DNA from: Eledone cirrhosa
Lineage: Eukaryota
Direction of reading: 5' to 3'
NCBI GenBank assembly: GCA_964016885.1
Contig: OZ024743.1
Location: forward strand, 78,864,001-78,928,000
Length of the DNA: 64,000 bases
The notes under the pieces were generated by a model that ran no database searches, was not told where the DNA came from, and saw only the letters and a list, made by a program, of their open reading frames with translations. Each line of letters opens with the position of its first letter. The first letter of the stretch is position 1. Below, piece by piece: positions 2,960 to 62,820 of the stretch. A program made the position numbers and the translations under genes.

Positions 2960-3512
2960 CCGAAAATATAAGTAAATGACATAGTCACTACTTTAAAACT
3001 GATAGTCTTCTAAATGTTTTTAATTAAACATACAGTATATTGCCAAATATACTATACATACATTCATATATACATCGCTATTTCAGAGCACCAATACTAA
3101 TACCTAATATATATATATATATATATATAAATTAGGTATTAGTATCGGTGTTCTCAAAAAACTTTTTCTTATTTGCTAAACCTTGATTATATTTGTTCTG
3201 GCTCGTTAATTTATTAACCTGCCATAGAACCACATTGGCATACGGTTGGATAATATATGCGTCCCTATATGCATTTTGCATGTAGGGAAACATACTTTAT
3301 TATTATTAATCTCCCCTGGTCGAGATAACATTTTGGTCGTTTTAACTGCTGCTATTTCTAGTACATTGACCTTTCCGCCCCTGCCTTCTATCTTTACACA
3401 CGGCACTAGACAAAATTGTTTCTTCATCATACACTCTCATCTCGGGAACAGTTCTGTATGGCGCCAGTTCGTGACTTGAACTCGGGAATTTTATATTCTC
3501 CGAGTGAGAAAA

Positions 3513-3596
3513 ACCCTCTGACGAAAGTCTTCTCCTCAATGGATTTCCGCATGGATTATCCATTTATTTTGAGACTTGAAACCGCGCGGTAAGGGT
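3513..3596 (+). ncRNA. Type I hammerhead ribozyme motif
   Basis: accct-CTGACGA-aagtct..agactt-GAAA-ccgcgcgg-TA-agggt: intact core and palindromic stem III (ACCGCGCGGT). Confidence 0.92.
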
Positions 3597-3939
3597 AATT
3601 ACAGCAAATACAGTGAACTTTTTAAAATTTATTTTAAAACTTTTTCTTATTTGCTAAACCTTGATTATATATATATACATATAGGGTCAGAAGGTTCAGT
3701 AAATCCGTAGAAAACTAGTGAGGGTACCAAAGTCAGCACTCCATGCTAGAGCAGAGTGTATATAATAATAAATTAATTAATCAACCCTTGAAAAGGCTTG
3801 ATGAACATATAAGGTCGGGATTTTACATATTTCTATAGCAACTCTACATTTCCCCGTGTATTGAGTCCTCCAGTGATTAGTGGCTTCCCTAGTCTCAGTA
3901 CCACATACTCTATACATATATATATATTTAATATAGAAA

Positions 3940-10376: not shown

Positions 10377-11375
10377 AGTGGTTTGGATGGTCTGCCCTAC
10401 GAGCTTTATAAGTACATGCCAGACTTGTCCGGTGACCTCTTGGCAGATGTCTACTGCAATTGGCAGCAGAACGGGAGCATTCCCAGTTTTGTGAGCCGGG
10501 GAGCGGTGGCGCTGCTGAGAAAAGACCGGAAGAAGAGGGATGTTATAGACAACTACAGGCCCATAACTGCAAATTTTGGCCAAGGTGTTAGCAACGAGAT
10601 TGGCGCTTGTCGTCGGTGATCTAGTGGGAGACGCGCAGACATGCGCCATTCCAGACAGATCCATCCACGACAACCTCCACCTCATGCGATACATCATAGA
10701 GAGGGTGGTTAGGGAACCTGCCACAGGTGGGGCTCTGATGAACTTGGACCAATCTAATGCATTTGATAAGGTCGACCATCGGTACCTGGTGGTGGTCCTC
10801 GAGGTGGCCGGCTTCGGGCTCGTTTTCAGGGGTTGGATTGCTGCGTTGCACAGCGAGATCTGCTCAGTTGTGAGGGTGAACGGTCATCTGTCACAGCCGT
10901 TCAGTATCATGCGTTCGGTCTGCTAAGGTTGTCCCCTCTCGTCCCTCTTGTACGTGTTGGCCCTTGAGCAGTTACTGCACAAATTGGAGGCAATGAGGGG
11001 CGTCCCACGCGAACTGGGATGTGGGAGATCCATATCGGCTTACGCCGACGACATCACCGTGGTAGTATCAAGAACCGGACATGTCCAGATGCTGGGCACT
11101 GCTCTCAAGGAATACGAAGCAGAGACAGGGGCAAAGTTAAATCAGGAAAAGTCGGTGGGCTTGCAATTCGGCAGTTGGAGAGTAATTCCATGCCGTCCGA
11201 CACCATCGTGGGGCGCTGGAAGGAAGGACCGGTTAAATTGCTCAGGTCTGGTTTGGTCCGGACCTCCAGATGGAGAAAACCTGAAGCGAGGTGACGAGCC
11301 TCTATCACTCAGAAATGGGCCAAGAGGAGGCTGTCTCTGAAAGGTCCGGGAGAGGTGGCGAATGCGTTCATCGCA
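10377..11375 (+). mobile_element. Decayed internal RT fragment of the Tx1/L1 family
   Basis: High similarity to about 14140-15160 (GLDGLPYELY, AFDKVDH, YADD), with frameshifts and stops. Confidence 0.9.
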
Positions 11376-11429
11376 TTACTTTTAAAAATAAAAAAAATAA
11401 AAATATATGTCTGAGCCACGTCCAGCACT

Positions 11430-14400
11430 ATGCCTGCTGTCAACGGCGTAAAAGTTGAGAGGGGGTTACAGAAATTCATACAACAAACACCAAAACCAAC
11501 GTGAACAAAGACAACAACACCGAGAACACTATTTTTTTAAAAATTACCACACCAAATACAACAATAACAGCGACAACCAAAATACAGACAACAGAAAAAA
11601 ATGAAAACAAATGCAACAATGATATTAATACCACTAACAAGAAAATAAACAACAACAACAACACCAACAGCAACAATACAAATTGCATCGAAAACAACAA
11701 CAACGGTGGCACCAAAAACACAACCAACTACAACGGTGATAACATCAGCAACACCAAAAACACCGTTTGTAGCAGTAGCAACAGCAACAGCAACAGCACC
11801 AACAACAAGACTAGTAGCAGCAGTAGCTGCAGCAATAATGGTGCCGCTGAAAAAGGGGCCACTTCTTTCGTAGGTGTGGCCCGAACTATAGAAACAGTGC
11901 TAGTCATGGAGGAGGAGATGGCAGTCGCTAGCGTCATGGTAACAAGAAGGGGTGCGTCTGGGTGCGCAAAACCCACATCACCCGAGGCAAAAAGTATGCC
12001 ACAGTAGACGTACTTTTCTCCACCCCCAAGAGGCGAAGTCTCACTCTTTGGAAACCCTAAAGAGTGAGGAGATAGTCTTGGTGCCCTCCTACTGCGGGCA
12101 GAAAGTTGTGAGGGTCAAAATCGCCGGAGTGGGCTCCACTACCACCACCAACAGTCGTGGAGCTCATACCCCTCCCAGACGCCACGGAATCCGAGATGGA
12201 GTATGAGGCGGGAGTGAAGTGGCAAACGGTCTGTCAAAAAAAAAGAAAAAAGAAAAAAACCCTTAGCTTCATCCTCCAAACGTGAAGGCAAACAAAAAGG
12301 GGTAAAGGCTGCAAGACGACTCGCAGCAACGCCACCACCAACAACCACCACACCACGACCACCAGCATCACCACAAACATCAACATCGCAAAAACAACAA
12401 GACAAACATACACAACAACAGCAACAAGAAAACAGCAACAAAACCAACCCCCCCCAAAAAACATTACACAGCCATAAAAATGGCAAATAAAGAACTCTTA
12501 GAACATATAAAGCAGCATACAGACATTACAGACAAAAATTACTACAACCCACCAACACCAAGAACTCTCCCGAAAAATATAAAGATTATTGAAATTAAAA
12601 TAGAACATTATAAACATTTAAAAGAAAAATTCCCCAACGCTGTTGGAGACTTCAGAGAGTCGGTTACCAAGAGGATATACACCGACATCATCTTGGCCAG
12701 CCAAAGGGACGGTTCGACTGTCCCTTTCCCACATGATCGGGGTAGGTGATCCTTTCTCACTTACTCCATTCCTCACCCAACATGGCCTTACTTAGAATAG
12801 GCAGTATAGATGTACGTGGCCTGTTGTCATCTTGGAAGCAGGGCCACCTGCTTAACGATCTCAGGTCACTAAACATAGATGTGGTGGCCATCAGCGAGAC
12901 CAGAATTTCCGAAGCACGAGCCTTCGAACCGAACTTCGTCGGCTACGATGTATACGCATCTCCCAGCCGTCCAGGATCGGGGAGTGGATTTGCTGTGCTT
13001 TTTCGGAGAGGCTTGGATCTTGCCATACGGGCCATCTTCCTGGACCCAGAAGGTAAGTCGGTGGTGCTGGACGTGACCGGCAGCGAAGGCAATGCTTTCA
13101 GGCTAGTAGCCGTCTACGCCCCAACAGTGGCAGGGCGGCCAGAGACCTTTCTTGGAACGTCCCGCTCTTAAGTGTTAGTGGGCGACTGGGGCGGTATCTT
13201 AGACGCACGCTGGGATTATGTGGGGCTAGTAGACAGGGCAGGAGGGAGTAAAAGCCTCAACAACCTGCTCAGACCTTTTGAACTGTCTGACAGGTATAGA
13301 TTGGATTATCCGAATGTGACAATGTGGGCATGGGCAAACCGTATCGGGTCATCCAGATCATATCTAGATAGGGTATTCTGTAGGGAAACAGATAAGGCTA
13401 TTGTAGGTTGTCCACAATTTAAAGTAGTCGACTACACGGACCACAAATTTGTGATCTGTGAAGTTGACTTAGATTGACTCCATAGGCAAGGGCCCGGTTA
13501 CTGGAAGCTAAACGCGTCGTTCCCGGCGCGCAAAGATTACAGAGACCAGATTAGCGAATTAGTTAAGAGTGCATTGACGGGTACGATCGTCAACAACAGG
13601 TGGTGGTTTACCCTGAAAAAAAACGATTAGAATAGAGTCTATTAGGTTTAGTAAGGCTTTAGCAATAGAGAAAAATAGAGCAGAGGGAGAACTAGTTAGA
13701 AAATTAGACGAGGCGCTTGGTAAAGGCATCACGACTGACGTACTTGCGGCTAAATTGGCCCTTGACCAATTCTTCAATGCAAAACACGAAGGCTGCGTTG
13801 TCAGAGTTAGGGTGCGTGCTCTCAGACACGAGGGGACGAAAGCCGTTCAATGGGCCCGAGTGGCAGAGGCGCGTCGTGGCAACAAAGCCATGATCCGGTC
13901 TTTGGTGGACCACGATGGGCGCATGCTACTCGATCCCGGGCAAATGTGTGAAGCTTTTCATCGACACTTCGCTCAGCTGTTCGAGGGCAGCGGCGGGCCG
14001 GATCGAGGGATGGACTTTAGTGTCTACCTCGACGGACTGCCGCGGCTTTCGGCCACTGAGGCGGAGTGTTGCGAAAAGCCGATAAAAACCGCTGAAGTAC
14101 GGGATGCAATGACTAGTTGCACAAGGGGTAAATCGCCTGGTTTGGATGGTCTGCCCTATGAACTTTACGGACAAATGCCAAACTTGTTCGGAGGCCTCTT
14201 GGCGGACGTCTACTGCAACTGGCAACAGAACGGGAGAATTCCCAGCTCTGTGAGCCGAGGAGCGGTGGCGCTGCTGAGAAAGGATCCGAACAAGGGGGAT
14301 AACATAGATAATTTTAGGCCCATAACTCTGCTAAACACAGAGTTCAAGATTTTGGCCAAGGTGCTAGCAAAGAGGTTGGCGCTTGTCGTTGGTGGTCTGG

Positions 14401-16426
14401 TGGGAGAGGCACAGACATGCGCCATTCCCGACAGATCCATCCACGACAACCTCCACCTCATGCGATACATCGTAGAGAGGGTAGCTAGGGAACCTGGCAC
14501 GGGTGGGTCTTTGATCAATTTAGATCAGTCGAAAGCCTTCGATAGGGTCGACCATCGTTACCTAGCGGCAGTCCTGAGGGCGGCTGGCTTTGGGCCAGTC
14601 TTCAGAGGCTGGATCGCTGCCATGCACAGCGACATCTGCTCTGTAGTGAGAGTGAACGGTCACCTTTCGGAACCGTTCAACATCATGCGCTCGGTCCGCC
14701 AAGGATGTCCCCTCTCGTCCCTATTGTACGTATTGACTCTCGAGCCATTACTGCACAAACTGGAGACGTTGAGGGGGGTCCCGCGCGAACTAGGATGCGG
14801 AAGATCCGTGTCAGCATATGCCGACGATGTCACCGTAGTGGTGTCGAACGCCAAACACATCGAGGCGATCGGCACTACACTAAGAGAATACGAAGCGGTG
14901 ACAGGAGCGATGATCAACCAGGAAAAGTCAGTGGGCCTGCAGCTCGGCACCTGGAGAGGCAGGTCCATGCCGTCCAACAGCGTCGTCGGGCGCTGGACGG
15001 ACGGACCGGTTAAATTGCTAGGGGTCTGGCTCGGTCCAGACCTCCAGACGGACAAAAACTGGGACGAGGTGACGAGCAGGGTGGCTTCTCTCACCCAGAA
15101 ATGGGCCGAGAGGAAGCTATCCCTGAAAGGTCGAGCGGAGGTGGCGAATGCGTACATCGCATCCGTCATCTACTACCGCCTGACCGTCGTACCTTGTCCT
15201 AAGCCCCGCCTGACTGCGCTGGAGCGTTTGCTCTTTCGCTTCTTGTGGAAGGGACGCGCTCCGATGGTCAGGCGGTCCATCTGCTGTCAACACCCGCTAC
15301 GTGGAGGGCTGGGCATGCCGTGGCTGATGATGCGCAGACACGCGCTCAGGCTACGACATCTCCACCTCTTCCTCGACGGTGATCAGGTGTGGTCGCCGTT
15401 TGCTAGACACGTTTTTCCCCAGCTCGTCTCCTTGACGGAGCTGCAGTCCTGGGTCAAGCGAAGACCGAGAGGGAGCGCTTGGAGACTGGAATGTCTTCAG
15501 GCGCTCACATCCCTCGACCAATCGGGCAATGTGATCGGTGGAAACTCCACCTTGGCGTTCTATAGGGGATTAGTGGAGGGGAAGAGCGCCGACGTACTTG
15601 GAGAAACTCTAGGCGTCGACGAAAATCAACTAGCCAATCTCTTCGGAAGGACTTTCGGGCCGGGGCCTATGGACAACTTCCAGAAATCCCTGGCCTGGCA
15701 GTGCTACCGAGGAGCTTTGCCAGTTCGGGATAAACTCTACAGGCATGGAGGTGCTGTCAGCCGGGCATGTCCGAGATGCGCGCAGGGCGACGAAACCGTC
15801 CTGCACGCACTCGTCCAGTGTCCGAGCATTGCTGACTTGTGGGTTTATGTCGAACACCTGCTGTCACGTGTAGGACGGATCCGGCTATCAGCTGAGTCCA
15901 TCGTGAGGATTGCCCCGCCCCCTTCCTTTAGCCGGGAAGGGCAGGCAGTTTTTATCTGTCTGGTGGCCATGGCGAAAGAGATAGTATGGTGGACACGTTT
16001 GAAAGGGCTGAAGACGAGCACTTACCTCTTCGGTGATGCCCTGATTAACTTTTTCAAATTTCATTTGAAAAGGAAAGTCAGGGTAGAGAGGGAAGTGCTC
16101 TCTTCCCAGCATCTTGTTGAAAGATGGGTGAGAGAAGCAAGTATGGCCCGAATGAATGGGCCTTCTCTGAGTATGTGTCTGTAAATTAAAGGTGGAAAAC
16201 TGGGAGAGGGCACTTGCCCTGGTGGTCAGGGCCACTGTGGTCTTTTAATGGGCTTTCTCCACAAATGTCCCTCGGAAGTCTCCCCCCTATTGGGGAATTT
16301 TTCTTTGTTATTTTATTTCAACCTCTGTTTTTTTACACGCAGAAATACCCATTTGTACCGTCCTGTATTGTCCTGTACTGTCCTTAATGTCTACTTTATG
16401 TAAACCCTTGTGGTTAATAAAGAAAA

Positions 16427-16461
<35 letters not shown>
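11430..16461 (+). mobile_element. Tx1/L1-clade non-LTR retrotransposon, near full-length ORF2, (TTA)n tail
   Basis: AP endonuclease from ATG 12782 (GSIDVRGL, ISET, VYAP, GDW, SYLDR, TDH) with frameshifts, followed by the RT, a 3' UTR with AATAAA and (TTA)n at about 16428-16461. The upstream N/T/Q-rich region is a probable ORF1 remnant; the 5' boundary is uncertain. Confidence 0.9.
13755..16184 (+). CDS. Tx1/L1 ORF2 reverse transcriptase and C-terminal Cys/His domain (809 aa open frame)
   Basis: KSPGLDG, NFRPITLLN, LDQSKAFDRVDH, RQGCPLS, YADD, GGLG and CPRC..ETVLHALVQC. Confidence 0.92.
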   Translation: MALDQFFNAKHEGCVVRVRVRALRHEGTKAVQWARVAEARRGNKAMIRSLVDHDGRMLLDPGQMCEAFHRHFAQLFEGSGGPDRGMDFSVYLDGLPRLSATEAECCEKPIKTAEVRDAMTSCTRGKSPGLDGLPYELYGQMPNLFGGLLADVYCNWQQNGRIPSSVSRGAVALLRKDPNKGDNIDNFRPITLLNTEFKILAKVLAKRLALVVGGLVGEAQTCAIPDRSIHDNLHLMRYIVERVAREPGTGGSLINLDQSKAFDRVDHRYLAAVLRAAGFGPVFRGWIAAMHSDICSVVRVNGHLSEPFNIMRSVRQGCPLSSLLYVLTLEPLLHKLETLRGVPRELGCGRSVSAYADDVTVVVSNAKHIEAIGTTLREYEAVTGAMINQEKSVGLQLGTWRGRSMPSNSVVGRWTDGPVKLLGVWLGPDLQTDKNWDEVTSRVASLTQKWAERKLSLKGRAEVANAYIASVIYYRLTVVPCPKPRLTALERLLFRFLWKGRAPMVRRSICCQHPLRGGLGMPWLMMRRHALRLRHLHLFLDGDQVWSPFARHVFPQLVSLTELQSWVKRRPRGSAWRLECLQALTSLDQSGNVIGGNSTLAFYRGLVEGKSADVLGETLGVDENQLANLFGRTFGPGPMDNFQKSLAWQCYRGALPVRDKLYRHGGAVSRACPRCAQGDETVLHALVQCPSIADLWVYVEHLLSRVGRIRLSAESIVRIAPPPSFSREGQAVFICLVAMAKEIVWWTRLKGLKTSTYLFGDALINFFKFHLKRKVRVEREVLSSQHLVERWVREASMARMNGPSLSMCL

Positions 16462-23947: not shown

Positions 23948-26900
23948 TAGCAGTTTATATATAAACTATTTTCCAGACGGCATAGCTCCAACATCTCTAA
24001 CACCTGCACCAACATCTATAGCACCTCTTTGTAGACGATATTGCGTGTCATCCCTTGAAGATTGTAAGCAAAAGTCCATTCCTGCTCCCTACGCAGGAAC
24101 AGGCAACATAAAGTTGGCCATGTGAGAAGCATGACTTCCCCCCAAATGGATGCCCTCCACCGACAATGTTTGCCCTTGTGACTTGTTAATGGACATGGCA
24201 AAATATGGTCTCACCGTAGATCGCCGGAAATCGAACAGGATATCTGACGCCGAGGGGAAAAGGTTCATCCTTGGAATGAAAACATTCTCCCCTCTCCCGC
24301 ACCCTGTTACAATGGTGGCCTCAATCAAGTGGGGCGTCAGTGACATGACAACCATGCGAGTACCGTTGTACTGCTTTGGTGGACGCAACTTCCTTATTAG
24401 CATAAGGGGACAGCCAACCCTAAGCTTAAGAATGTGAGGTGGGAGCCCTGGGGGCTCAATGGAGTTTAATAACTCAACCGGATAATTAACGATATCGTCC
24501 GGGTCTGACGTCCTGTCGATAGATTTGAAGATGTGCTCTTTACCGGGAATCTTCTCAATCAGCTGCTCGTTAATAAAATTAACCATGTCATTTTTCGGAG
24601 CAAGGATGGCTCTTTCGCTGAGCCAATCGAGGTTTTTAAATTTAGATGAGACATTAGGAAAAACTGCTTCCCAAAGGGCTGCCCACAATGTTGCACAGGG
24701 AGCTGATTGCTATGCCGCCCTTGTCATCCGCAGGGACTTTTCCCTCACCAAGTGCTAAATTGTTCTGAGCAAATGCTGCAGACATGTTGTCACCATGCAA
24801 ATGAGCACGCATATTTGTGCTCAGGTACAAACTCTTCACCTGGGGCCACAGCGTGGACGACTTAAGGTAGGCACGCACTTCATCAGCTCTTGTCCCTTTG
24901 GGGATGACAGGCAGCGTTTTCCGAAAATCCCCTGATAGCAGAAGGGTTACGCCACCCATAGGAGCTGTAGAATCCCTAATGTCTTTCAGGGTCTTGTCCA
25001 ATGCCTCAAGGGCACCCTTGTGTGCCATTGTGCATTCATCCCAAACAATGAGGCAACATTTTTTGAGAATCAGAGCTTCGTGTCAGCTCTTGCTGATATT
25101 GCACGTTGGTGTCTCAGTTTTTACTAAATGCAAGGGGTGTTTAAAGGTTGAATGTGCTGTCCTGCCTCCCGGCAGCAAAATAGCGGCGATCCCGGGCGAT
25201 GCAGCGGCCAACGCAATTTTTTTCTCCTGACGAATCTTAGCCAGAATCAATTTCGTTACAAACATTTTTCCGGTAGCCCCAGGAGCATCGAGAAAGTAAA
25301 CACCCCCAGTCTGATTTTGAACCGCGTCAATGATCGTTAAATAGGCCAACTTTTGGTCCGACAGAAGTCTGGGCTCATTTTCCTCTAAGTATTGGGAAAG
25401 AGATTCGATATCATATGCTGTTTCCCGCAATATATCCGGGGCCAACGTCTTAGCTTCCTCTCTGACGGTTGACGGCAAGCCATACGTCGCCAACTCACTC
25501 CCACCCATGTCGAGGAGGGCGTCTTCGATATCAATGAATGCCCTGTTATAGATAATGTCGTTGCAACCAACTTCCACTGAAGGATACTGCAGATGAGCCA
25601 GGCGCAGGAAGTCCTCAGGCATGAAGTCTCTGTACTTGACCCATAAAGATTTGGGATCACCCAATTCACACTTTTGAAGCAAAATGGCTAAGAGCTCCCG
25701 TAGACTTTTAGGTGATTTCAACAAAGCACCCTCTGCTAAAGTGGAATCCCATTGCGAATCATCTTCTAAAAGACCACGCTTAAAGCAGGCTTCCCGGTAC
25801 GTATCACATATTTCTCCATCAACAGTTTTGAGGTCCTGAAAACTTTGTGGGCCTACATCTTCATGCAGAAGAAGGCGGAGATGAAAGCGCTCATCATGAC
25901 TTGGGGCCACAGTGTAAACCCTTCGAAGACAGCTGTCAAATTTTACACCAGGATGTCTTTCAACAGCCTGACCAGAATTTCTTCGCACCCAAGTGTTTTT
26001 CGACCATATAAAGTAGGATGGAACCTGGGGGTACACAATTGCGCAAATGTATCGAACTGGCAAAGTTTGAAGAAACCCGTCAGAGTGGTCTCTTTCGGAT
26101 CGGCGGCCAACTTGGTGGCCGTTTAGTCCGTAAAGTAAACCTTTTGCCCATTTTCCAAATGTACCGCAAGCTGTAAGATGGCGGGGTGCCGTTGGTGTAG
26201 GGGTAAACCAAATAGGCGCCAAAAAGCTTCATTGCTACTGATGTACCGCCCCGCCAGGTATTCTGTGACCTCGTCCCTGCTATTTTCAGCTTGAAATGCA
26301 AGCATTGCGGCATCAGAGCCCTTATTTACATATTTGCATATGTATTTTATCGACTTGACGGAGTTGCAAAACTCAACGTTGATGTGGGCGTTGAACATCT
26401 TCAAGAGAAGCGGACAGTAAGGGACCACCCATCTATTGTCGACTTGACCTCCCATTACTGTTGTGGTGAAGCCACCGTTCGAGGGCTGTCTCCGCCTGTA
26501 CAGGGGGTACCAGTCGCCACCAGCCTGAGTCTGGTCAACAAATTTTTTGGAGTATCGCTTACTGCACGACCCCCCCCCCCCCTTTGAGACACGTGTGATG
26601 CTCATTAGAACCCGACGTACACAGACCATGTTAGCTTTGACGATATCATATAATTCCTGGTCAGTTGCTGGGTTAAGGATTTCAGCCGAAATGAAGCTGT
26701 CTATGGCATTTGAATTGATTTTATCAGCTAACCAAATCAAAATGTGAACATGTGGCAGCCCTCGTTTTTGCCATTCGACGGTGAACATGTCACATTTTAC
26801 AGCCCCAAATACCTGACCCTTTTTGATTAAAGCCATGAGTTTAGCCAGTTTCAGTTTGAATACTCTGGCAATGAGGTCATGTCTGTTCGAATAATTTTAC

Positions 26901-30552: not shown

Positions 30553-30555
<3 letters not shown>

Positions 30556-33500
30556 GATATTAAGCAAATGGAAACTATATTTATATTTATAAAACCATAT
30601 TTATTTCGTTATATATATTTCTGGGATATCATATTAAAAATATGTTATGCCTTCCTCAGACAAAATACAATACATAAGCTGTTTTATAAATAATTGGTGA
30701 CATACCTTGTGATAATGCAACTTCCTTTTAAAAAGTTGATTTGGTAGTGAAACTGTTATGATAGTTATATAGAAAGAAAACGAAGATGAGAAGAAGAAGA
30801 TGAAGAGATGTATGCAAAAAAAAAAAAAAAAAAAAAAGAAGAAGATGAAGAGATGTATGCAAAGAAAAACAACGGAGCGAGATAGAGAGACAAGGAGAGA
30901 GAGAAATACATTGATGGTGAAAAAACATAGTAGGCTGCTTTTTGACAGATGATCATCGTATATGTGAGAGGTTAAGGGAAGGGATACAGTTAAATTAGTG
31001 TATAGGAGAAAAAGAAAGAAAGATGATATATTTAAAATATATTAAAAATATATTATGTCTCATCCATTTGAATTATCAATTTTTATGAATTAGGTATTAT
31101 AATGTAAATATCAGTATTCATGAATGAGACACATATCCATAATGTGTGAAAAAAATGACCACATGCTCAGTTAAAAATTCTTAGGTCTATAAGCAAAATC
31201 TGAGATAAAACTTCAAACATAAGAATATATGCATTCTCGTGAAAAAAGAGAAAAGAGAAGGTTATCTCAAATTCAAGTTGATAAATATAGACGCACATGT
31301 GAACCTACGTGATACGCTGCACTGATTCTTATATTTCATGAAAAACTTCAATGCGTTAGAAAAGATTCCACCCTACATACATTTACATACAAATATACAT
31401 ATATATAGACACAAAACATATAAGATATACATTAACATCTAAAATAACATTCCAGCCTCACTTGCATGATCATCGATCAAGCATAGAGTAGACAACAGAT
31501 ATCAATATTAAAATTAAAAACGCCAAGAATATCTTCGTCACTCCACAGAGTATCTAGGGACGCAAGAGAACATAGTATGCCACGCATATCGGTCATAGAA
31601 TCAGAGTCAAAAGCAAACAAAACCAAAATTGTTCATCAAGCCTTATTTAGCAGAAATCATTCAAAACTTATTCTACAAATGCTCTTATATTTATTATAGA
31701 AGTTTATCCAGCTTAAAAATTTATTCAAAAGATTGGGGACAACGCCAATTATAGGGTAGTTTATTTAATCTCATTAATTATATATTCATGCAGAAAGGTT
31801 TTTAAAAAAAAATTTAAGGAATCGAAAGATTTATCGCCAAGTATCACAAATAGTCAAATACCTTAAGTAAATATACTACATTTTATATTACATTTTAAAT
31901 TTATATTTATATTTAAATGTTGAGTTCAATCTATGTCTGCAACAGCTGAATAAATTGGTTCGTAAATTAAGGGAATTTTTAGATTTTAATATAAAGAATA
32001 TCTCCTCCGCGCAGAGGTCACAAGTCTCAGAAGAGGAATTAAAAGGAATCCCTTTTGAGACTATATTCCAAACCATCGAATATCCAACTTTATCATGCTT
32101 AAGTTGCCAGAGTAACCCTGACAGCGATGTTGAGGATTTTTTATTTGGATCCGTGAAAGAGTTTTTGTGATTATTATAGCGAAGTTTAAATTCTGTCGAG
32201 GTGGAACCAACATAATTAAAAGAATTTAAATCAGTTCTAACATTACAGTTGTATATTATATTTTTAACTAAGCAATTGTTATTTAGCGGACATTTAGATC
32301 TATCTCTACAGTTACAGTTTTTTAGTTGAATATTGTTTAGGCTATTTTCGGTATTTTGGCTAGGTTTTAGATTCCTATTATTTATTCTATTAATATTTTG
32401 TGCTAAATTTTTGGTGGACGAGTACGTTAATTTTATAGTATGTCTATTAAAAATTGAGTGATACTTATGTGTTCTAGGGAAGCGTTTGTCAAGAGCATTA
32501 AAAAATAGTTTAACGATGTGGGTTTTAATGCTTAGTGAGAAGGGGGGGGGGGGGGCAAACCATATTATATTTCTAGTTCTATTTCTTTTCTGGTTTTTGA
32601 AATTATTGTAGTGCTTTCTATTATAGTTGTTAAAGTTGTTACTGTAATTAAAATTGTTGTTATTTTGGTTAGTTTGTCTATTATCGATGTACATAATTTA
32701 TCACTATATCCTGCTCTAGCTAAAGCTTCATTATAATACTGGGCTTTTTCGTCAAAAATATTTTTATTGGAAGAGATTCTAGAGATACGTTTTTGAACAG
32801 AGTTCACTATAGTATTTTTGACAGATCTGGGGTGATTGGAGCTAAAATTGACATAATTCAAGTTTTCATTTAACTTGTGAAATGGATAGTGAAGACATGT
32901 GTTGAGATTAAATGTTACGTCTAGGAAATTGACTATTCTATGGTTATTCTCAATTTCTATTTTTAGATTAAGGTAATTAAAAAATTGTATAATTTGTTTT
33001 CTTTTCTTATTTAGTTCAGAGTTATTATTTTCAATAAGTAAAAGCATGTCATCTCTATATAAACCTCCGGTAACACCGGGTATTTTCCTATGCAGCGAAT
33101 TATATATGTATATTTGTATGTAAATGTATATGTATATTTGTATGTAAATGTATGTAGGGTGGAATCTTTTCTAACGCATTGAAGTTTTTCATGAAATATA
33201 AGAATCAGTGCAGCGTATCACGTAGGTTCACATGTGCGTCTATATTTATCAACTTGAATTTGAGATAACCTTCTCTTTTCTCTTTTTTCACGAGAATGCA
33301 TATATACTTATGTTTGAAGTTTTATCTCAGATTTTGCTTATAGACCTAAGAATTTTTAACTGAGCATGTGGTCATTTTTTTCACACATTATGGATATGTG
33401 TCTCATTCATGAATACTGATATTTACATTATAATACCTAATTCATAAAAATTGATAATTCAAATGGATGAGACATAATATATTTTTAATATATTTTAAAT

Positions 33501-34064
33501 ATATCATCTTTCTTTCTTTTTCTCCTATACACTAATTTAACTGTATCCCTTCCCTTAACCTCTCACATATACGATGATCATCTGTCAAAAAGCAGCCTAC
33601 TATGTTTTTTCACCATCAATGTATTTCTCTCTCTCCTTGTCTCTCTATCTCGCTCCGTTGTTTTTCTTTGCATACATCTCTTCATCTTCTTTTTTTATTT
33701 ATTTTTTTATTTATTTGCATACATCTCTTCATCTTCTTCTTCTCATCTTCGTTTTCTTTCTATATAACTATCATAACAGTTTCACTACCAAATCAACTTT
33801 TTAAAAGGAAGTTGCATTATCACAAGGTATGTCACCAATTATTTATAAAACAGCTTATGTATTGTATTTTGTCTGAGGAAGGCATAACATATTTTTAATA
33901 TGATATCCCAGAAATATATATAACGAAATAAATATGGTTTTATAAATATAAATATAGTTTCCATTTGCTTAATATCGTAAACCTACTCCAGAAACTGTTG
34001 AGTGCTTTTATATCAGTTATAAAATATTTACTCGTTGTAACCCAACAATCTTAAATATAACTTT

Positions 34065-35091: not shown

Positions 35092-35316
35092 CACAATTAT
35101 CAAAGTTATGTTCAAATCATTTAATTGCTGACAATCGTTTCTACCAAACTTTCGTTTGGAGTCATTATTTTATATTCCTGCTCTGTAAAACACCTGATCT
35201 TCTTAAATTGAGCTATTTCTCTTACTGGTAGTAAGGTAGTAGGAAATTACTGACTTTTCCTGTTTATAGTTGTTTATAGTATATACATAATTATAAATAG
35301 TATCATTATTATTAAG

Positions 35317-38894: not shown

Positions 38895-41800
38895 GCAGTC
38901 TGGTTATGACTCTGCTGGCTTAGAGCCACAGAGAGGGCCAGTGGATGATGGATCAGCTGTCTCTGAGACAAATATAAAGAATGCAGTTTTGTCCTGCAGA
39001 AGAGCCATCAAAATGGGCACTTTGAATGTGAGGACTATTCGGACGCTGGAGAAGAGAGAGGAGTTGGGACATCTGTTCGAGGAGAGTGGTATACAGATAC
39101 TTGCGATCCAAGAATACAGGATCCTACACTATGAGCCCGTGAGGAGTGTGATGATTGGGAAGACGAGCCAGCTCATCACCACATCGGCAGTGAGGAACAT
39201 GACCAATGCTGCAGTGGGAGGATTGGGTTTTGTTTTCAGCACAAAAACCAGTCTATTGGAGGGAAATAATGCCTGTCGCCCCGCGAGTGTTGAGGGTGAC
39301 CTTCAATGGAAACCCAAGACTGACAGTCATCTCAGCCTATAGTCCAACCGAGGGGGACAGTGATGTGAGTGCGGAAGAGTTCCATGAGGAGGTGTGTAGA
39401 GCTGTCAACACCTCTCAGGCACACAACATCCTGCTTGTTTTGGGGGACTTCAATGCACATCTGAGTAAGGAGGGCAGTGAAGATCCTTGCTGGTACTTCC
39501 ATAACAACACCAACCGAAATGGAAGACTACTGAGAGACACCCTGCTGGAGGCGAACTTGATAGCGACCAAACTAAGGTTTAGGAAGAATCTGGGGAAGAT
39601 GTGGACCTACATCTCAGATATGCACCTGTCCAAGTCCCAGATTGATTTCATTCTGGTGAGGAAAAAGTGGCGGAATAGTGTTCTGAACACAGAACCATAC
39701 AACTATTTCAGTACAATGGGTAGTGACCACCAGCTTGTTATGAATGAGGTCCGGGTGAGCTTAAGAAAGAGCAAGGCTTAGCCCCGGAGAGCAATCTATG
39801 ACTGGGGAGCTTTCAAGGAAGATGATAAGCTACAGTAGAGATTCACAATGGAAGTGAGGAACAGGTTCAGTGCTCTGTGTGGAGAGTCAGAGGAGAGAGA
39901 GACTGGATGGACTGAGGAGAGTGTGACGAGGAGGTACGGGCACTTCACCAATGCAGTGGCGGAAGCAAGTGAAACCCTGGTGCCGAGGAAAAAGAACAAA
40001 AGGAAGCACGTCAGCTCTGCAAACCCAAAAGTGTGTGCAGCCAGAGAACACCTGAAAGCTGCCAAGGACCAATTCTATGCTGATTCTACGGAGGAGAGGA
40101 TGGAGACTGTGGAGGTGATGAGGGAAGAACTCTGTACCGCTTACACTGAGGCCAGAGAGGAGGCACTGATAGAGAAGATCAGAAGTGTGGAGAGAGCGGT
40201 TGACAGATTTGGATGTAAGGAGAGTTGGATGATCATAAACGAGATCACAGGGAGGAAGAGAAGGTGTTCGAGTCAGATCCAGGGAATGGGGCCCGAGGAT
40301 AGGAAAAGGAAATGGCTAGACCATTTTAGGACCCTACTAGGAGAGTCACCCTCCACAGCCCAGAGCACTGTGGAGATCAGGCGGCTGTTTGAGGAACTGG
40401 ATATTGAGACAGAGCCCTTCACCAGACAGGAGCTTCAGAGAGTCAAAAAGAGGATCAACGAGGGCAAGGCTCATGGAGAAGATGGAGTGGCATCAGAGGT
40501 GATGAAGAGGTGTGATTTTGATGATATCATCCTGGGGTTCTGTAACCGGGCACTGGAGAAAGGAGTTGCCCCGAATCAGTGGAGGATCAGTAACATCGTC
40601 CCAGTGCCAAAGAAGGGAGATCTCTCTAACACCAACAACTACAGGGGGATCTCACTGACGTCACTTGTGGCAACACCCTCAACAGGATGATTCTTAACAG
40701 GATCCAGACTGAGATGGAGAAGAAGCTCAGGGACAACCAGAACGGCTTCAGAGAGGGAAGATCAACCACCAGTCACATCCTGATGCTGAGGAGGATATTA
40801 GAGGGAGCTAGAGCAAAGTGCCTTCCTGCGGTCATGGTTTTCATTGACTTTAGGAAAGCCTTTGATTCTGTGGACCATCACTGCCTGATGAAGATCTTAC
40901 AGGCTTATGGAATCCCCAAGAGGATAGTGGACCTGATATCACTGCTCTACACCAACACCAAAGCCCAAGTCATTACACCTGATGGGATGACAGAGTTCTT
41001 TGAGATACTGGCTGGAGTGCTCCAGGGAGATACATTGGCTCCCTACCTTTTTATCATCGTAGTGGACTATTGTATGCGCCTTGCACTGGAGAAACACCAG
41101 GACTCTGGCTTTACTGTAGCACCGGCTCAGAGCAGGAGAGTTAAGGCGTAAAAGGTATCAGATCCTGAATTTGCCGACGACATAGTTTTGGTGACAAATA
41201 CAGTGAAGGAGGCAGAGGATTTGATGCGGGAGGTTGAGACTGTGTCGATGATTGTGGGGCTGAGAATGAATGAGACTAAAACAAAATATCTGGTAGAGAA
41301 TGTTGAGAAGCCAGAGGGGATCACTAATGTAGGCGGGAAGCCGCTAGAATTGGTTGAGGGCTTCCTGTATTTGGGAGCAAAGATTGGGAATACGGAAGAT
41401 GATGTGGTTGAGTGGAAGAGCAAAGTCTGGGCGGCGTGCCACAGCTTGAGATCGGTGTGGAAATCGGACCTTCGTAAAGACCTGAAAATCCGCCTCTTCA
41501 TTGCTGTAGTGGAGTCTGTGCTGCTGTACGCGTCTGAGACTTGGACACTGACCAAGAAACTCACTCAGATGGTGGATGGGTGCTACACGAGAATGCTGAG
41601 GATGGCTCTGAACATTAATCAGTATACACTGAGGATGAAAAACTCAGAGCTGTATGGGAGCCTCCCAAAAGTCAGCTCAAAAGTGACACAGAGGAGACCT
41701 AGGTTAGCTGGACATGCTCACCGACATCCAGAGTTGACACTTCACTCAGTGCTCCTGTGGGAGCCCCTACATGGACACACTGGAAGAGGAAGACCAAGGT

Positions 41801-41925
41801 TAACATATGTTGACGCCCTAAGGACAGACACTGGTCTGTTGGAGACGCAGGACATGGCAGCGATAATGAGGGACAGAGACCGCTGGAGAGAACTCGTCCA
41901 TGGATCTCGGGAATTTTACCCGCCC
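38895..41925 (+). mobile_element. RTE-clade LINE (APE + RT), inactivated by frameshifts and stops
   Basis: GTLNVRT, AIQE, SAYSPT, GDFNAH, IDFIL and SDH; NYRGISL, QNGFR, FIDFRKAFDSV, GVLQGDTLAP, FADD and GRGRP. Confidence 0.92.
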
Positions 41926-41973
<48 letters not shown>

Positions 41974-41979
41974 AACCAG

Positions 41980-42054
<75 letters not shown>

Positions 42055-44128: not shown

Positions 44129-44183
44129 CAATACCATTCGTTGTAACACTGATTCTCTTTTTTTCTGTTATATATATATATAT

Positions 44184-45075
44184 AAATGAGCGGAACAAGC
44201 AATTATCAAACAATCTTTTAAATAAATTAAAAAACGATTTAAATATTCACCTGTTCTATTGCCGTTACCGACAGTTTCACTAATCAAAAGATTGGAAATT
44301 CAGAGAATTTCCAATGGAAAGAATTAGATCTTCAGACAGCTATTTCCATACTATAGGGTATAAAGCCTCATAGTAAGTTAATATTTCGCTTCATTCGCGG
44401 TGCATGCGGTCAAGCCGTTAAAGTGACTTACACACAAAAATAGGCCATGAGTAAAAGCGGGTTATTATAAACTTGTTGATCATGCCGCTAAAAATAGCAG
44501 CGCAATACACCGTTTTGTTCTCTACATATAGGAGAAAAATTATAAAAGGGTATAGATATTCCTACAGGCACTAGGTACCTCCAGAAATATGCATGGTGTT
44601 TATAATACCCTTTTATAATTTTTCTCCTATATGTAGAGAACAAAACGTTGTATCGCGCTGCTATTTTTAGCGGCATGATCAACAAGTTTATAATAACCCG
44701 CTTTTACTCATGGCCTATTTTTGTGTGTAAGTCACTTTAACGGCTTGACCGCATGCAACGCGAATGAAGCGAAATATTAACTTACTATGAGGCTTTATAC
44801 CCTTATAGGATGGACATAGCTGTCTGAAGATCAAATTCTTTCCATTGGAAATTCTCTGAATTTCCAATCTTTTGATTAGTCAAACCGTCGGTAACGGCAA
44901 TAGAACAGGTGAATATTTAAATCGTTTTTTAATTTATTTAAAAGATTGTTTGATGATTACTTGTTCCGCTCATTTTTATAGTTCTGGTATCTCAAATTAG
45001 TACCATCGAACCACAACTATTATAAACACCATGCATATTTCTGTAGGTACTCAGTGCCTGTCGGAATATCCATAC

Positions 45076-45082
<7 letters not shown>
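44184..45082. mobile_element. Inverted, circularly permuted non-coding element in (TA)n with two hammerheads
   Basis: About 44184-44552 is inverted at about 44605-44973, and about 44543-44606 is inverted at about 45018-45082. Confidence 0.85.
44261..44340 (-). ncRNA. Type I hammerhead (mirror 44819-44898 has GAAA>CAAA)
   Basis: gctgt-CTGAAGA-t-ctaatt..gattag-t-GAAA-ctgtcgg-TA-acggc. Confidence 0.85.
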
Positions 45083-45130
<48 letters not shown>

Positions 45131-45138
<8 letters not shown>

Positions 45139-46057
45139 AAGAGAAGTGTGTTAAGATGTGTGTAAAGAATTATTACAAGTGAGCTTAACCGTTACTGTAT
45201 GGAGAACAATATCTACAGGTTAGCAATTAAATAGAAAAAAACTAAGTCAGTATCAAATCTCTGAAGTAGAGTTTTAAATTACCAACCTTATAACTATAAG
45301 TTTGCTGATACGAATCTAGTTCGTTTCACCACAGAAATGTGCAGTTTAACAGCCCACAGGTTCCTCAGTCAGCAAATGTGGATTCTGTTCAAGACACATC
45401 TAACCTCATGGATAGAGAAAGCTACTATACATGCTGCCCAGAGTAGGGCGAAATCACGTGTTATTTGCATCAAATAACGGCTCTCGTGGATTGGGGAAAA
45501 TGCTAGAGAGGGCAGCCCAACCATTCGAATTTATTAGCTCAACAATTTGGTGCTCGTTAAGTATAAGAGGATCGGAATTAAGAGTATTCCGCAGTTCACA
45601 GTAATAATAATAATATTAGCTCAAATAAGAATAGAGAATTTTCTTCTGAGCTCAAATACAAATATATTACACAAAGAGAAGTGTGTTACACAGTGAGATG
45701 TGTGTAAAGAATTATTACAAGTGAGTTTAACCGTTACTGTATGGAGAACAATACCTACAGGTTAGCAATTAAATAGAAAAAAACTAAGTCAGAATCAAAT
45801 CTCTGAAGTAGAGTTTTAAATTACCAACCTTATAACTATAAGTGTGCTGATACGAATCTAGTTCGTTTCACCACAGAAATGTGCAGTTTAACAGCCCACA
45901 GGTTCCTCAGTCAGAAAATGTGGATTCTGTTCACGACACATCTAACCTCATGGATAGAGAGAAAGCTAATATACACGCTGCCCAGAGTAGGGCGAAATCA
46001 CGTGTTAACACAGTAACGGTTAAACTCACTTGTAATAATTCTTTACACGCATCTCAA
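45131..46057 (-). mobile_element. Tandem (~1.6 units of ~540 bp) hammerhead-bearing non-coding element with terminal inversion
   Basis: 45131-45462 is repeated at 45668-46006; about 46008-46057 is an inverted copy of about 45694-45741. Confidence 0.85.
45301..45376 (-). ncRNA. Type I hammerhead (second copy 45843-45918)
   Basis: tttgctga-CTGAGGA-acc..ggt-GAAA-cgaa ctaga ttcg-TA-tcagcaaa. Confidence 0.9.
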
Positions 46058-46156
46058 TGTTCTTACATTGAGCTATTTCTCTTACTGGTAATATGGTAGT
46101 AGCAAATTACTGACCTTTCCTGTTTATAATTGTTTATAGTATATACATAACTATAA

Positions 46157-47134
<978 letters not shown>

Positions 47135-47294
47135 TTGAACTATTTCTCTTACTGGTAATAAGGTAGTAGCAAATTCCTGACCTTTCCTGTTTATAGTTGT
47201 TTATAGTATATACATAACTATAAATAGTGTTATTATTATTATTATTATTATATATATGTGTATACATATATATATATATAAATAGTATTGTTAT

Positions 47295-59877: not shown

Positions 59878-62820
59878 ATTTGGTCGAAGGAGACTTGTAC
59901 TTTTTGCCATCATCATGGCAAAAAGTACAAGTCTCCTTCGACCAAATCGCAACTACAACCGTTGTATACAATGGAGCTACGAGCTTAACAAAGTATTATA
60001 TGAAGCATACAAACAATCTGAACCCCAAAAGTTCAGTTTTATGCAAAGGCTAAAAACTTTATGGAACTCCAAACACCCAGAATTAGACTTTTCTCCAAAG
60101 CATTTAAATGAACAGGTAAAACGTATCATTAGATGTAACTTGATACATCTAACGGAATTGAGTGATGCTACCAATACAGCCCTTGTAGACAACCATCCCA
60201 CCTCCACTGAAAGACTAAAATATAAGTCAACAGCACATAAACGACAAGTGCTAAATAGATTGTTTGCCAGAGATCCTAAATAAGTTTATCGCAGCTTCGG
60301 TGGCAAAAGCTCAATCTCTGTAAACGACACCCCTTCAAAAGAACAGGTTGAGAGCTACTGGAGAAACGGATGGGAAACGGATGACGGATTCAACAGACAA
60401 GCTAATTGGCTAAAAGAACTGGAACAGGACTACTGCCAACATGTCCAGATAAAATAATATGACATAAATGGGTCAATACTGGAAACAGCTCTACAGAAAA
60501 TGTCGAATAGGAAATCGCCAGGCCCAGACCTCATTACAGGATACTGGTTGAAGAATTTCACTTTCTATCGACAAGATCTTATACGGCTGTTTACAGAAAC
60601 CATTAAAGGCACACAAGAACTGCCCAGATGGTTATCAACTGCCACTACTCTCCTCATTCCCCAAAATAGCCAAACCACCCTTGCTAAAAATTACCGCCCA
60701 ATAGCCTGCCAAAACATCATGTATAAATTATATACTGGGTGCCTTAACCTGTTCTTACAGGATCACTGTGCTACCAACAACATCATAACACCTGAGCAAG
60801 CTGGTGGAAAGAGGGAGGTGTGGGGTTGCATAGATCACCTACTAACCAACAAAATGATTCAGGAAAAAACAACGAAGAATCGCATAAACATGACTGTGGT
60901 GTGGCTGGACTATCAAAAAGCATTTGATAGTGTACCTCATGGGTGGATTATTAAGGCTTTACAGTTAGCTAAAGTCCCACAACCATTTGTAGCTGCTGTT
61001 GAACGCCTGACCAAGAACTGGTACACCAATTTGATCCTTAGAGGTGAGAAGGAGCAAGTTAAGACTGATAAGATACATTACCAGAAGGGCATCTTTCAGG
61101 GTGATAGCTTGTCAGTACTACTCTTCGTTCTCTCACTGAATCCACTATCTTACCTACTCAGGAAACAAGGTGGACAAAGAAGTGGGCCCAGAAGTATCTC
61201 CCATCTTTTCTTTGTTGATGACCTGAAGTTGTATGGGCCAAATATCAATGACATCAAGAAACAATTGGACCTCATTACACAATTTTCAACCGACATCAAA
61301 ATGAAATTTGGTGAGTCCAAGTGTGCATATTTGGCAGTAAAACGTGGAAGAGTTGTGCCCTCCTCTAGAAATCTAGGGATGAACGGCCTGACAATACAAC
61401 CTCTGCAGTCAGGTGACAACTACAGATATCTTGGACAGGATGAGAATGTCAGATATGATGGACCCATAAATAAGGAGAGAACCAGAACTGAATACCTCAG
61501 AAGAGTAAAGAAAATATGGTCATCAGAACTGTCAGCATACAACAAATACATTGCCCACAATACTTATGCTGTGCTATTTCTAACGCCACCATTTGGCCTG
61601 CTGAACTGGTCATTGCAAGAACTAAGTGAGATGGATGTTAGAACTCGAAAACTTCTCAGTGTTACTGGGAACTTTAACATCAATGGTGATGTGGATAGGC
61701 TATACTTCTCACGCAAGGAAGGTGGCCGGGGTCTAAAATCAATATTAACAACATATGAGACCCGGATAGTAACACTGAAGCAACACCTTCAACAGAGGAA
61801 AAAGGTTGGCAACCATCTTGCCCAGGTTTATGAGCATGAAAAAAAAATATCATTAGAATAGCGACTGATCTGGAGGAGAGATATGGAATAAAGCCTGATA
61901 TAAATCTCTCACCCAGAGAAATCGGAAGATCCTATTCAATGTTCAGACAAGATTAAAAAAATTGACCAATTTACAGAAAAAGTTGTGCATGGATACTTGA
62001 GGCGTAAAACACAGACCATAGAGGGGATAAACACTCAGAAAGCCTGGCATGGAGTTCCGACAAGTTTATGACATCACACCTTGAGGGATATCTCTATGCA
62101 ATACAAGAACAAGAACTCCCTACCAAATATCTGCTGCACAAAAGAGGAGGGACAGCAGCTGACAATAAATGTAGGCTATGTAAAACAAAGATCGAGGATG
62201 TAAGCCACATTGTTGCCAGCTGCGAAAGAATGTCATCTCGCTACTACCTCCCCATGAGACACGATGGGATAGCTAGAACCATCTGGAACGAACTTCGGAA
62301 AACAAAATTAACAAACGTGGAAGAATATATTGAGACAGATGGCACTAAGGAATACTGGTGGAACCTGAAAATAAAAACTGCCACCAAATTAAAGCACAAC
62401 CGGCCTGATATTGTTGTTTGGGACCACACATTGAAAACGTGTTCTGTTGTGGAGATCAGCTGCCCACTTGATGTAAACGTTGTCAGAAAAATAGAGGAGA
62501 AGGAGGACATCTACGGACCATTGATGAGGAGTTTACAAATCCAGTATCCAAGATACACCTTTAGCTTCATACCTATCATTATTGGAGTTACGGGTTATAT
62601 ACGAACCCGCTTAGACCAAAGTATGACTGAACTTGGATTTGCGGACAAAAAGCGCAGCTCCCCAATTCATAGTCTACAAATGGTTGCGATAGCTGGCACC
62701 TTCAAAATTTGCAAAACATTCTTGCGATTCAAGGGATGACAATTTCTTTTTTTTTACAACCTTGCCACCAGGAAGGTGGCCGGTCAAAAAAATATACTCG
62801 AAATTAAGAGAAAGAGATAA
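59878..62820 (+). mobile_element. R4/Dong-clade non-LTR retrotransposon (Myb-like N-terminus, RT, CCHC knuckle, restriction-like endonuclease)
   Basis: KSPGPD, NYRPIAC, WLDYQKAFDSVPH, GIFQGDSLS, FVDDLKLY and GGRGL; CRLC..HIVASC, RHD and RPDIVVWD..EISCP. Ends in CATA repeats and has stops and frameshifts. Confidence 0.9.

Follow-up and report, generated by a model that had tools for sequence, protein, structure and literature searches.

Is the short non-coding unit that carries a hammerhead ribozyme motif in each of its two copies in Eledone cirrhosa DNA a retrozyme, and by which machinery was it inserted there? An earlier, sequence-only reading of the window, a 64,000-nt stretch of this genome analysed here as a whole, had called the locus retrozyme-like and proposed that tandem hammerheads excise from its transcript a 542-nt monomer able to circularise. 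The LTR retrozymes of plants were reportedly described by Cervera, Urbina and de la Pena in 2016. They are characterized by a type III ribozyme, PBS/PPT and 4-bp duplications (PMC6765202, in part). Animal non-LTR retrozymes are known from coral, mussel and axolotl (Cervera and de la Pena 2020; Li, Clavereau and Pollet 2026), and circularised monomers have been demonstrated for all three (PMC7229834, in part). Their units measure 150-450 bp according to sections of PMC7229834 and 51-972 bp according to sections of bioRxiv 10.64898/2026.07.22.740005; the unit of 542 nt described below is above the first range and within the second. In the same sections of the bioRxiv report, animal retrozymes are found to match the terminal repeats of Penelope-like elements (PLEs) and are argued to derive from them, and one of nine predicted retrozyme dimers cleaved in vitro, while the other eight did not.

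By its methods text, the bioRxiv report covers no mollusc. For giant squid, 235 matches to the Rfam hammerhead-1 family are reported (PMC6962438). A survey of the literature, for the most part of papers outside subscription, yielded no report of a cephalopod or intron-bearing retrozyme, and the accessible passages of PMC13282606 and PMC10886601 mention neither.

Two type I hammerhead motifs spaced by 542 nt

The whole window was searched for type I hammerheads with the core CUGANGA...GAAA...UH and whose stems I, II and III measure at least 4, 3 and 4 bp, respectively. Three matches were obtained: a single one on the plus strand, at 3518, and a pair on the minus strand, whose H17 positions are 45851 and 45309; none of 100 dinucleotide-shuffled windows contained such a motif. 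The two minus-strand motifs, hammerhead A (45843-45918, C3 at 45910) and hammerhead B (45301-45376, C3 at 45368), share the GUA triplet and a 28-nt loop II, and their predicted cut sites, 45851/45850 and 45309/45308, are exactly 542 nt apart. The search thereby recovered the same two direct copies and the same cut sites that the sequence-only reading had named.

Stems I, II and III comprise 4, 3 and 5 bp in hammerhead A and 8, 3 and 5 bp in hammerhead B, and stem III is stable upon folding (pair probability 0.77-1.0). The shortened stem I had previously been assigned to the second copy, a statement that is ambiguous or wrong, as the short stem belongs to the upstream copy at 45851, which comes first in the transcript. 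Its stem I has only 4 contiguous bp because the letters at 45915 and 45844 deviate from those of the repeat family and break two pairs of the family 8-bp stem, the form retained in copy B. At both positions the family letter is that of copy B, as judged from the sequencing runs X1 and X8 introduced below (1631 of 1643 contig depth and 29 of 31 reads at 45915; 8379 of 8379 contig depth and 65 of 73 reads at 45844). The deviating letters of copy A could reflect mutation of this copy or errors of the assembly.

A comparison of the whole window with Rfam gave 0 matches at gathering score and 17 matches at E up to 10, none of them to a hammerhead family; both motifs were probably missed due to their 28-nt loop II. 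A scan for the full motif in contigs of metagenomes and viruses gave 0 matches, and a looser hammerhead pattern gave 38 loci, of which 0 resembled the 542-nt unit and none had a 3-bp stem II.

Further hammerheads are located in the window at +3518 and at +1557/-1430, against an expectation of 0.1 per shuffled window; with these three additional motifs, hammerheads are thus common in this DNA. The motif at 3513-3596 (plus strand, C3 at 3518) is a textbook PLE-type type I hammerhead with a 7-bp stem II, a palindromic stem III, the GUA triplet and a 5-bp stem I; it represents a family unrelated to the 542-nt unit and lies between identical 35-nt direct repeats (3158-3192 and 3636-3670). The motifs at 1430 (minus) and 1557 (plus) are near-identical minimal hammerheads of a third family, arranged divergently as an inverted pair beside TA runs. 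A hammerhead-like match at +44040 is doubtful.

Architecture of the insertion

The insertion is 874 nt long, or 1.61 units, and constitutes a partial tandem with a 51-nt inverted head. Repeat comparison and alignment delimited two direct repeats on the minus strand, copy A (46007-45669), upstream in transcript order, and copy B (45463-45134), which runs into a microsatellite; 322 of their 330 aligned columns are identical, and they differ by 8 substitutions and 2 indels. The 205-nt spacer that sets them apart (45668-45464) occurs once at the locus; it is non-coding and, by its contig and read coverage in every bin and its joint with the repeat in other copies, part of the family unit. The predicted 542-nt monomer between the cut sites occupies 45850-45309 of the minus strand. 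At the 5' side, junction sequences and blastn revealed an inverted, 5'-truncated copy of the 3' region of the unit (46010-46060, plus strand), which matches 45690-45740 with 96% identity over 51 nt and is devoid of the last 21-34 nt of the unit, here called the tail, whose boundary blurs into TA. At the 3' side the insertion ends in a (TA)26 microsatellite (45081-45132), the likely insertion target according to repeat annotation and to the TA ends of other copies. No target-site duplication, including one of 4 bp, was found around the insertion.

The longest ATG-started frame of the circularised monomer encodes 51 aa in the sense and 57 aa in the antisense orientation, and ORF and protein-domain checks detected no RT + GIY-YIG ORF between the repeats. 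The locus was said to have no coding capacity, and indeed these ORF and protein searches found nothing coding. The unit has no polymerase III A or B boxes, and a T7 run is present inside it. The monomer has a GC content of 36.5% and a circular minimum free energy of -130 kcal/mol (z -3.8), with 0 of 100 shuffled sequences as low.

Several features of the neighbourhood were recorded in addition. A repeat of approximately 100 nt beside (TAA)n is found at 46057-46158, 47130-47225 and 35197-35298, with ends that agree within 6 nt, and one of its copies adjoins the inverted head. A perfect 8-bp hairpin (46053-46072) spans the junction where the inverted head meets this flanking repeat, which would fit a target end that folded back and then jumped to the template. 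Two 86-nt pieces, 46155-46240 and 16343-16428, are 95% identical and end in (ATT)n, the latter coming after a LINE ORF (13617-16184). A MITE-like element with inverted arms of approximately 380 bp (44179-44980) lies 100 bp from the (TA)26 run, and a 131-bp inverted repeat (2095-2225 / 2778-2908) is also located beside TA runs. Viewed as a whole, the window is animal DNA rich in repeats, among them LINE, Helitron and microsatellite sequences; remnants of LINE reverse transcriptases and of a Helitron (Rep + PIF1) are found at 10927-16184, 24089-26896, 39203-41982 and 60458-62739. A recurring SINE-like motif, which we take to be octopus-type, has 11 copies in the window.

Penelope insertion marks and PLE sequence in the window

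PLE insertions are described as partial tandems that often begin, on their 5' side, with a 5'-truncated copy in inverted orientation, and that have a 30-40-bp tail, (TA)n targets and no visible duplications (PMC8557442, in part). The partial tandem with an inverted 5'-truncated copy is present at our locus, where the tail of 21-34 nt, blurring into TA, compares with 30-40 bp in PLEs, and where TA is found on the 3' side only, the 5' flank being another repeat. The sequence-only reading had correctly seen the short inverted segment and the (TA)n, which correspond to 46060-46010 and to (TA)26 at 45081-45132, but it had missed that the two, together with the partial tandem, are insertion marks of PLEs.

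The window also contains a PLE-type ORF remnant (33130-31888, minus strand), which has an Atlas first hit of 0.97, hit clusters in which 28% of the members have GIY-YIG and 17-76% have HTH_animal, and five relatives, including a PF26215 relative; it had no Pfam match, and a long-protein search gave nothing. Self-comparison of the window revealed no DNA match of this remnant to the 542-nt element, and an autonomous PLE with this ribozyme was not found within the 64 kb. In a wider frame (31430-33130, minus strand), the remnant comprises an RT end, linker cysteines and a GIY-YIG region, is frameshifted near 32560-32700, and is enclosed by an 880-bp inverted repeat of 98% identity (30553-31429 / 33101-33979).

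The spacer was considered as a possible C-terminus of a PLE ORF, and this assignment was rejected. Its 48-codon frame has no PLE relative, and a word search with the frame gave 0 hits and a full phmmer search gave 2, one an ankyrin-like protein and the other a small repeat protein. In addition, a stop interrupts this frame at 45486 in most copies (3382 of 3662 depth).

A repeat family of mostly partial copies

The query unit (45460-46010) was compared at 80% likeness with four of ten sequencing runs, X1, X8, X5 and X7, of which X1 may be related to the source of the window, X8 is a RAD run of other samples with the same species label as X1, and X5 and X7 bear other organism labels. X1 contains 679 contigs on the unit (241, 258, 150 and 30 of them in the identity bands 99+, 95-99, 90-95 and <90%), and they cover all 29 bins with a summed depth of 1,450-63,700, which does not equal copy number; single diverged contigs have depths of 8-12. 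X8 contains 656 reads on the unit, X5 two contigs and X7 one contig. The spacer-to-repeat joint (46003->45460) is present in three of the four runs, namely in X1, in X8 (26 reads with 12 starts) and in X7 (one contig), and absent from X5; the repeat-to-spacer junction is spanned by an X5 contig (45602-45763) and by X1 contigs. A unique local duplication, which the sequence-only reading had named as a case against itself, is excluded by the number and depth of these contigs.

Long arrays were not seen in the four runs, and the uneven coverage along the unit indicates that most copies are partial. Coverage is maximal at the 3' end (45669-45725), as would be expected for 5'-truncated retro-copies with duplicated termini, and other copies run into TA at 45653-45656 (one contig, 32 reads). 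Copies A and B share the subfamily letters at the family-split sites 45903, 45858, 45720 and 45729, but at 45754 they carry different letters, each of them common in the family; by these letters they are likely to stem from a single template. In X1, where variable sequence can drop short contigs and hence affect depth steps, the depth changes across the cut site from 8379 at 45844 to 2176 at 45858, as if many copies began at the ribozyme cut, and we regard this as a lead; X8 has no such step (73 reads at 45844, 63 at 45858). The read-end piles of X8 at 45576, 45579, 45637, 45713, 45767 and 45822 all fall on AATT sites and were rejected as restriction artefacts.

The same coverage bears on a competing explanation, to which we give a modest chance, namely that the locus is a dead-on-arrival partial tandem of an autonomous PLE, in which two 5'-truncated 3' ends were fused at approximately 45575-45600, so that the 542-nt spacing would be particular to one or a few loci and there would be no retrozyme family. 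Its structural marks are all PLE marks, none of the contigs spans the whole unit, and depth drops from approximately 19,000 (45574-45592) to approximately 4,200 (45555-45573) and rises toward the 3' end, as 5' truncation gives. However, reads and contigs that carry the low-depth part cross 45573/45574, with three family substitutions (45566-45569) inside the alignments; the step at 45574 is bridged by at least 6-17 nt in reads and in one contig, 11 molecules reach the AATT site at 45579, and the loose letters of one contig equal 45582-45590. The depth-weighted share of X1 contigs that run on into unlike sequence is 0, and the region upstream of the ribozyme, with its stop at 45486 in most copies, shows no protein relative.

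Ribozyme variation and predicted folding

Substitutions among the copies number 113, and of the 40 listed, 13 fall within the ribozyme span (45918-45843). None of these 40 affects the 13 core positions or 8 further positions of stem III; in this listed set, the copies do vary in loops II and III and at the 10.1-11.1 pair. Two listed substitutions concern one stem I pair (45918 U>C and 45843 A>G) and may or may not occur in the same copies. Six listed substitutions hit loop II or the 5' flank that is complementary to it, four of them at unpaired positions, one keeping its pair and one, at 45892 (15 of 60 reads), breaking it; one listed deletion in these strands removes G at 45895.

This complementarity connects the 28-nt loop II (45900-45877) with the 25 nt directly before stem I (45943-45919), which could pair over 19 bp to form a predicted off-switch hairpin. 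The duplex has an energy of -20.5 kcal/mol in copy A and -18.5 kcal/mol in copy B, values that were matched by 3 and 8 of 2000 shuffled loops, respectively, and its proximal part was matched by 78 of 2000. Judged by linker length, the full helix would be incompatible with stem II. Alternatively, an activating pseudoknot could be formed by the proximal 6 bp, which continue stem I and could represent a helical form of the stem I-II contact, a form mentioned in a passage of PMC10085705.

In a folding model that works without pseudoknots and tertiary contacts, the active fold lies above the ensemble by 12.5 kcal/mol (copy B) and 24.6 kcal/mol (copy A) with the flank included and by 7.2 and 11.4 kcal/mol, respectively, without it, and in context the pair probability of stems I and II is at most 0.01, in the family-form copy too. 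By comparison, at most 1.2 kcal/mol separates the unrelated motif at +3518 from its active fold. Cleavage by copy A is predicted to be weaker than cleavage by copy B.

A predicted intron in the unit

PLEs keep introns on transposition. In copy A, a spliceosomal intron is predicted on the minus strand (45828-45737) with a donor at 45828, 22 bases past the cut site, and an acceptor at 45755 (74 nt) or 45737 (92 nt), each acceptor having its own branch-point motif and pyrimidine tract; the same signals in copy B delimit a predicted intron from 45286 to 45213 or 45195. By a rule that was set after the site had been seen, 21 of 2000 shuffled sequences had at least one such prediction, and a search of both strands of the window brought up one other conforming site. 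None of the five joints listed from the sequencing runs skips the predicted intron. The Penelope terminal repeat carries a 75-bp intron (PMC2377424, in part), which in D. virilis precedes the ribozyme (PMC4209133, in part), whereas the intron predicted here follows it. The inverted head breaks off (45737-45740) at the acceptor of the predicted 92-nt intron, which may be chance.

Taken together, intron and hairpin allow a bolder version, which we hold to be improbable: an intron-bearing dispersed retrozyme with a switchable hammerhead, in which the flank would either lock loop II (19 bp, off) or form the short pseudoknot (on), splicing would give circles of 468 or 450 nt beside those of 542 nt, and many copies would begin at the cut. 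If this were true, copy starts at the cut would be a genomic footprint of in vivo cleavage and a handle on how Penelope builds partial tandems and inverted heads.

As for the sequence-only reading, its retrozyme-like unit stands, being multi-copy and non-coding with one type I hammerhead per 542 nt, but excision of the 542-nt monomer at this locus is doubtful, because the upstream ribozyme, on which the 5'-OH end depends, has two non-family letters in stem I, the predicted inactive hairpin lies 12.5-24.6 kcal/mol below the active fold, and an RNA of 468 or 450 nt could result if the predicted intron were spliced out. With an upstream motif that differs from the family at two stem positions, the locus probably releases an RNA circle poorly.

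Discussion

We consider it likely that the locus is an insertion of 1.6 units of an animal non-LTR retrozyme. This 542-nt element, non-coding and present in many copies, probably is a non-autonomous derivative of PLE terminal repeats and would be copied into TA microsatellites by the Penelope RT/GIY-YIG endonuclease. In the proposed scenario, polymerase II would transcribe a tandem source copy, either from a promoter in its own terminal repeat or by read-through, into an RNA of more than unit length, part of which would be cut at successive hammerheads into monomers with 5'-OH and 2',3'-cyclic-phosphate ends, which ligation could turn into circles. Owing to the flank-loop II hairpin, this cutting would stay incomplete or circles would be shielded from a second cut. 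The transposon enzyme would then prime near the TA-rich 3' end and copy past one unit, on a circle or an uncut multimer, as has been proposed for the PLE enzyme (PMC4209133, in part); copying would stop at 46007, and the inverted piece would be added afterwards. What the hammerhead does in Penelope transposition is called an open question in a section of PMC8557442. The present copy is probably aged and, given the likely weakness of its upstream ribozyme, would probably supply monomers poorly.

Very little likelihood is left for a satellite or dispersed repeat that spread at the DNA level with its hammerhead inert and locked in the flank-loop II hairpin. The inactive fold is predicted to dominate and Rfam has no match, but the core and stem III are free of variants among the listed substitutions and the loops variable, and the inverted head, the TA end and the intron signal point to RNA-mediated insertion. 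Least credible is an LTR retrozyme or TRIM, with repeat, spacer and repeat as LTR, internal region and LTR moved by an LTR retrotransposon, since its resemblance to the plant layout (two direct repeats of approximately 340 nt that both contain a hammerhead and enclose a short non-coding core; PMC6765202, in part) is opposed by a ribozyme of type I instead of type III, the lack of a 4-bp duplication, the inverted head and TA end, and a repeat coverage that is not flat.

The element shares with the animal non-LTR retrozymes of coral, mussel and axolotl its non-coding nature, a GC content below 50%, a multi-copy, head-to-tail organisation with a single type I hammerhead in every unit, a predicted well-paired monomer and natural variation at the base of stem II, where one axolotl family has a U.U pair (PMC7229834, in part). 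It differs from them in forming 1.6 units with an inverted head and not a long array, and in its 5-bp stem III, flank-complementary 28-nt loop II and predicted intron. With the pseudo-LTRs of endonuclease-bearing PLEs that have hammerheads (Cervera and de la Pena 2014, PMC4209133; Craig et al. 2021, PMC8557442; Schostak et al. 2008, PMC2377424; all in part) it shares the partial tandem, the inverted 5' copy of the 3' end and a hammerhead near the 3' end, and it may also share the short tail, the (TA)n end and, by prediction, a short intron signal in the repeat. In contrast to these, it has no RT/GIY-YIG ORF between the repeats, and its ribozyme is neither minimal nor dimer-dependent in build: the minimal PLE hammerhead has a very short palindromic stem III, a 4-5-bp stem I and a long stem II (PMC4209133, in part), whereas here stem III is a stable helix of 5 bp and the family stem I has 8 bp.

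A new animal non-LTR retrozyme that is a non-autonomous PLE derivative is thus our best reading of the element, the locus itself probably being an aged passenger. It would extend animal retrozymes to a cephalopod genome, and it unites a retrozyme unit and Penelope insertion marks in one short insertion, in line with the view that retrozymes are non-autonomous Penelope derivatives. Being a small family whose partial copies number in the thousands, and having an unusual ribozyme and perhaps an intron, it would make the role of the hammerhead testable by comparing copy ends with the cut site.
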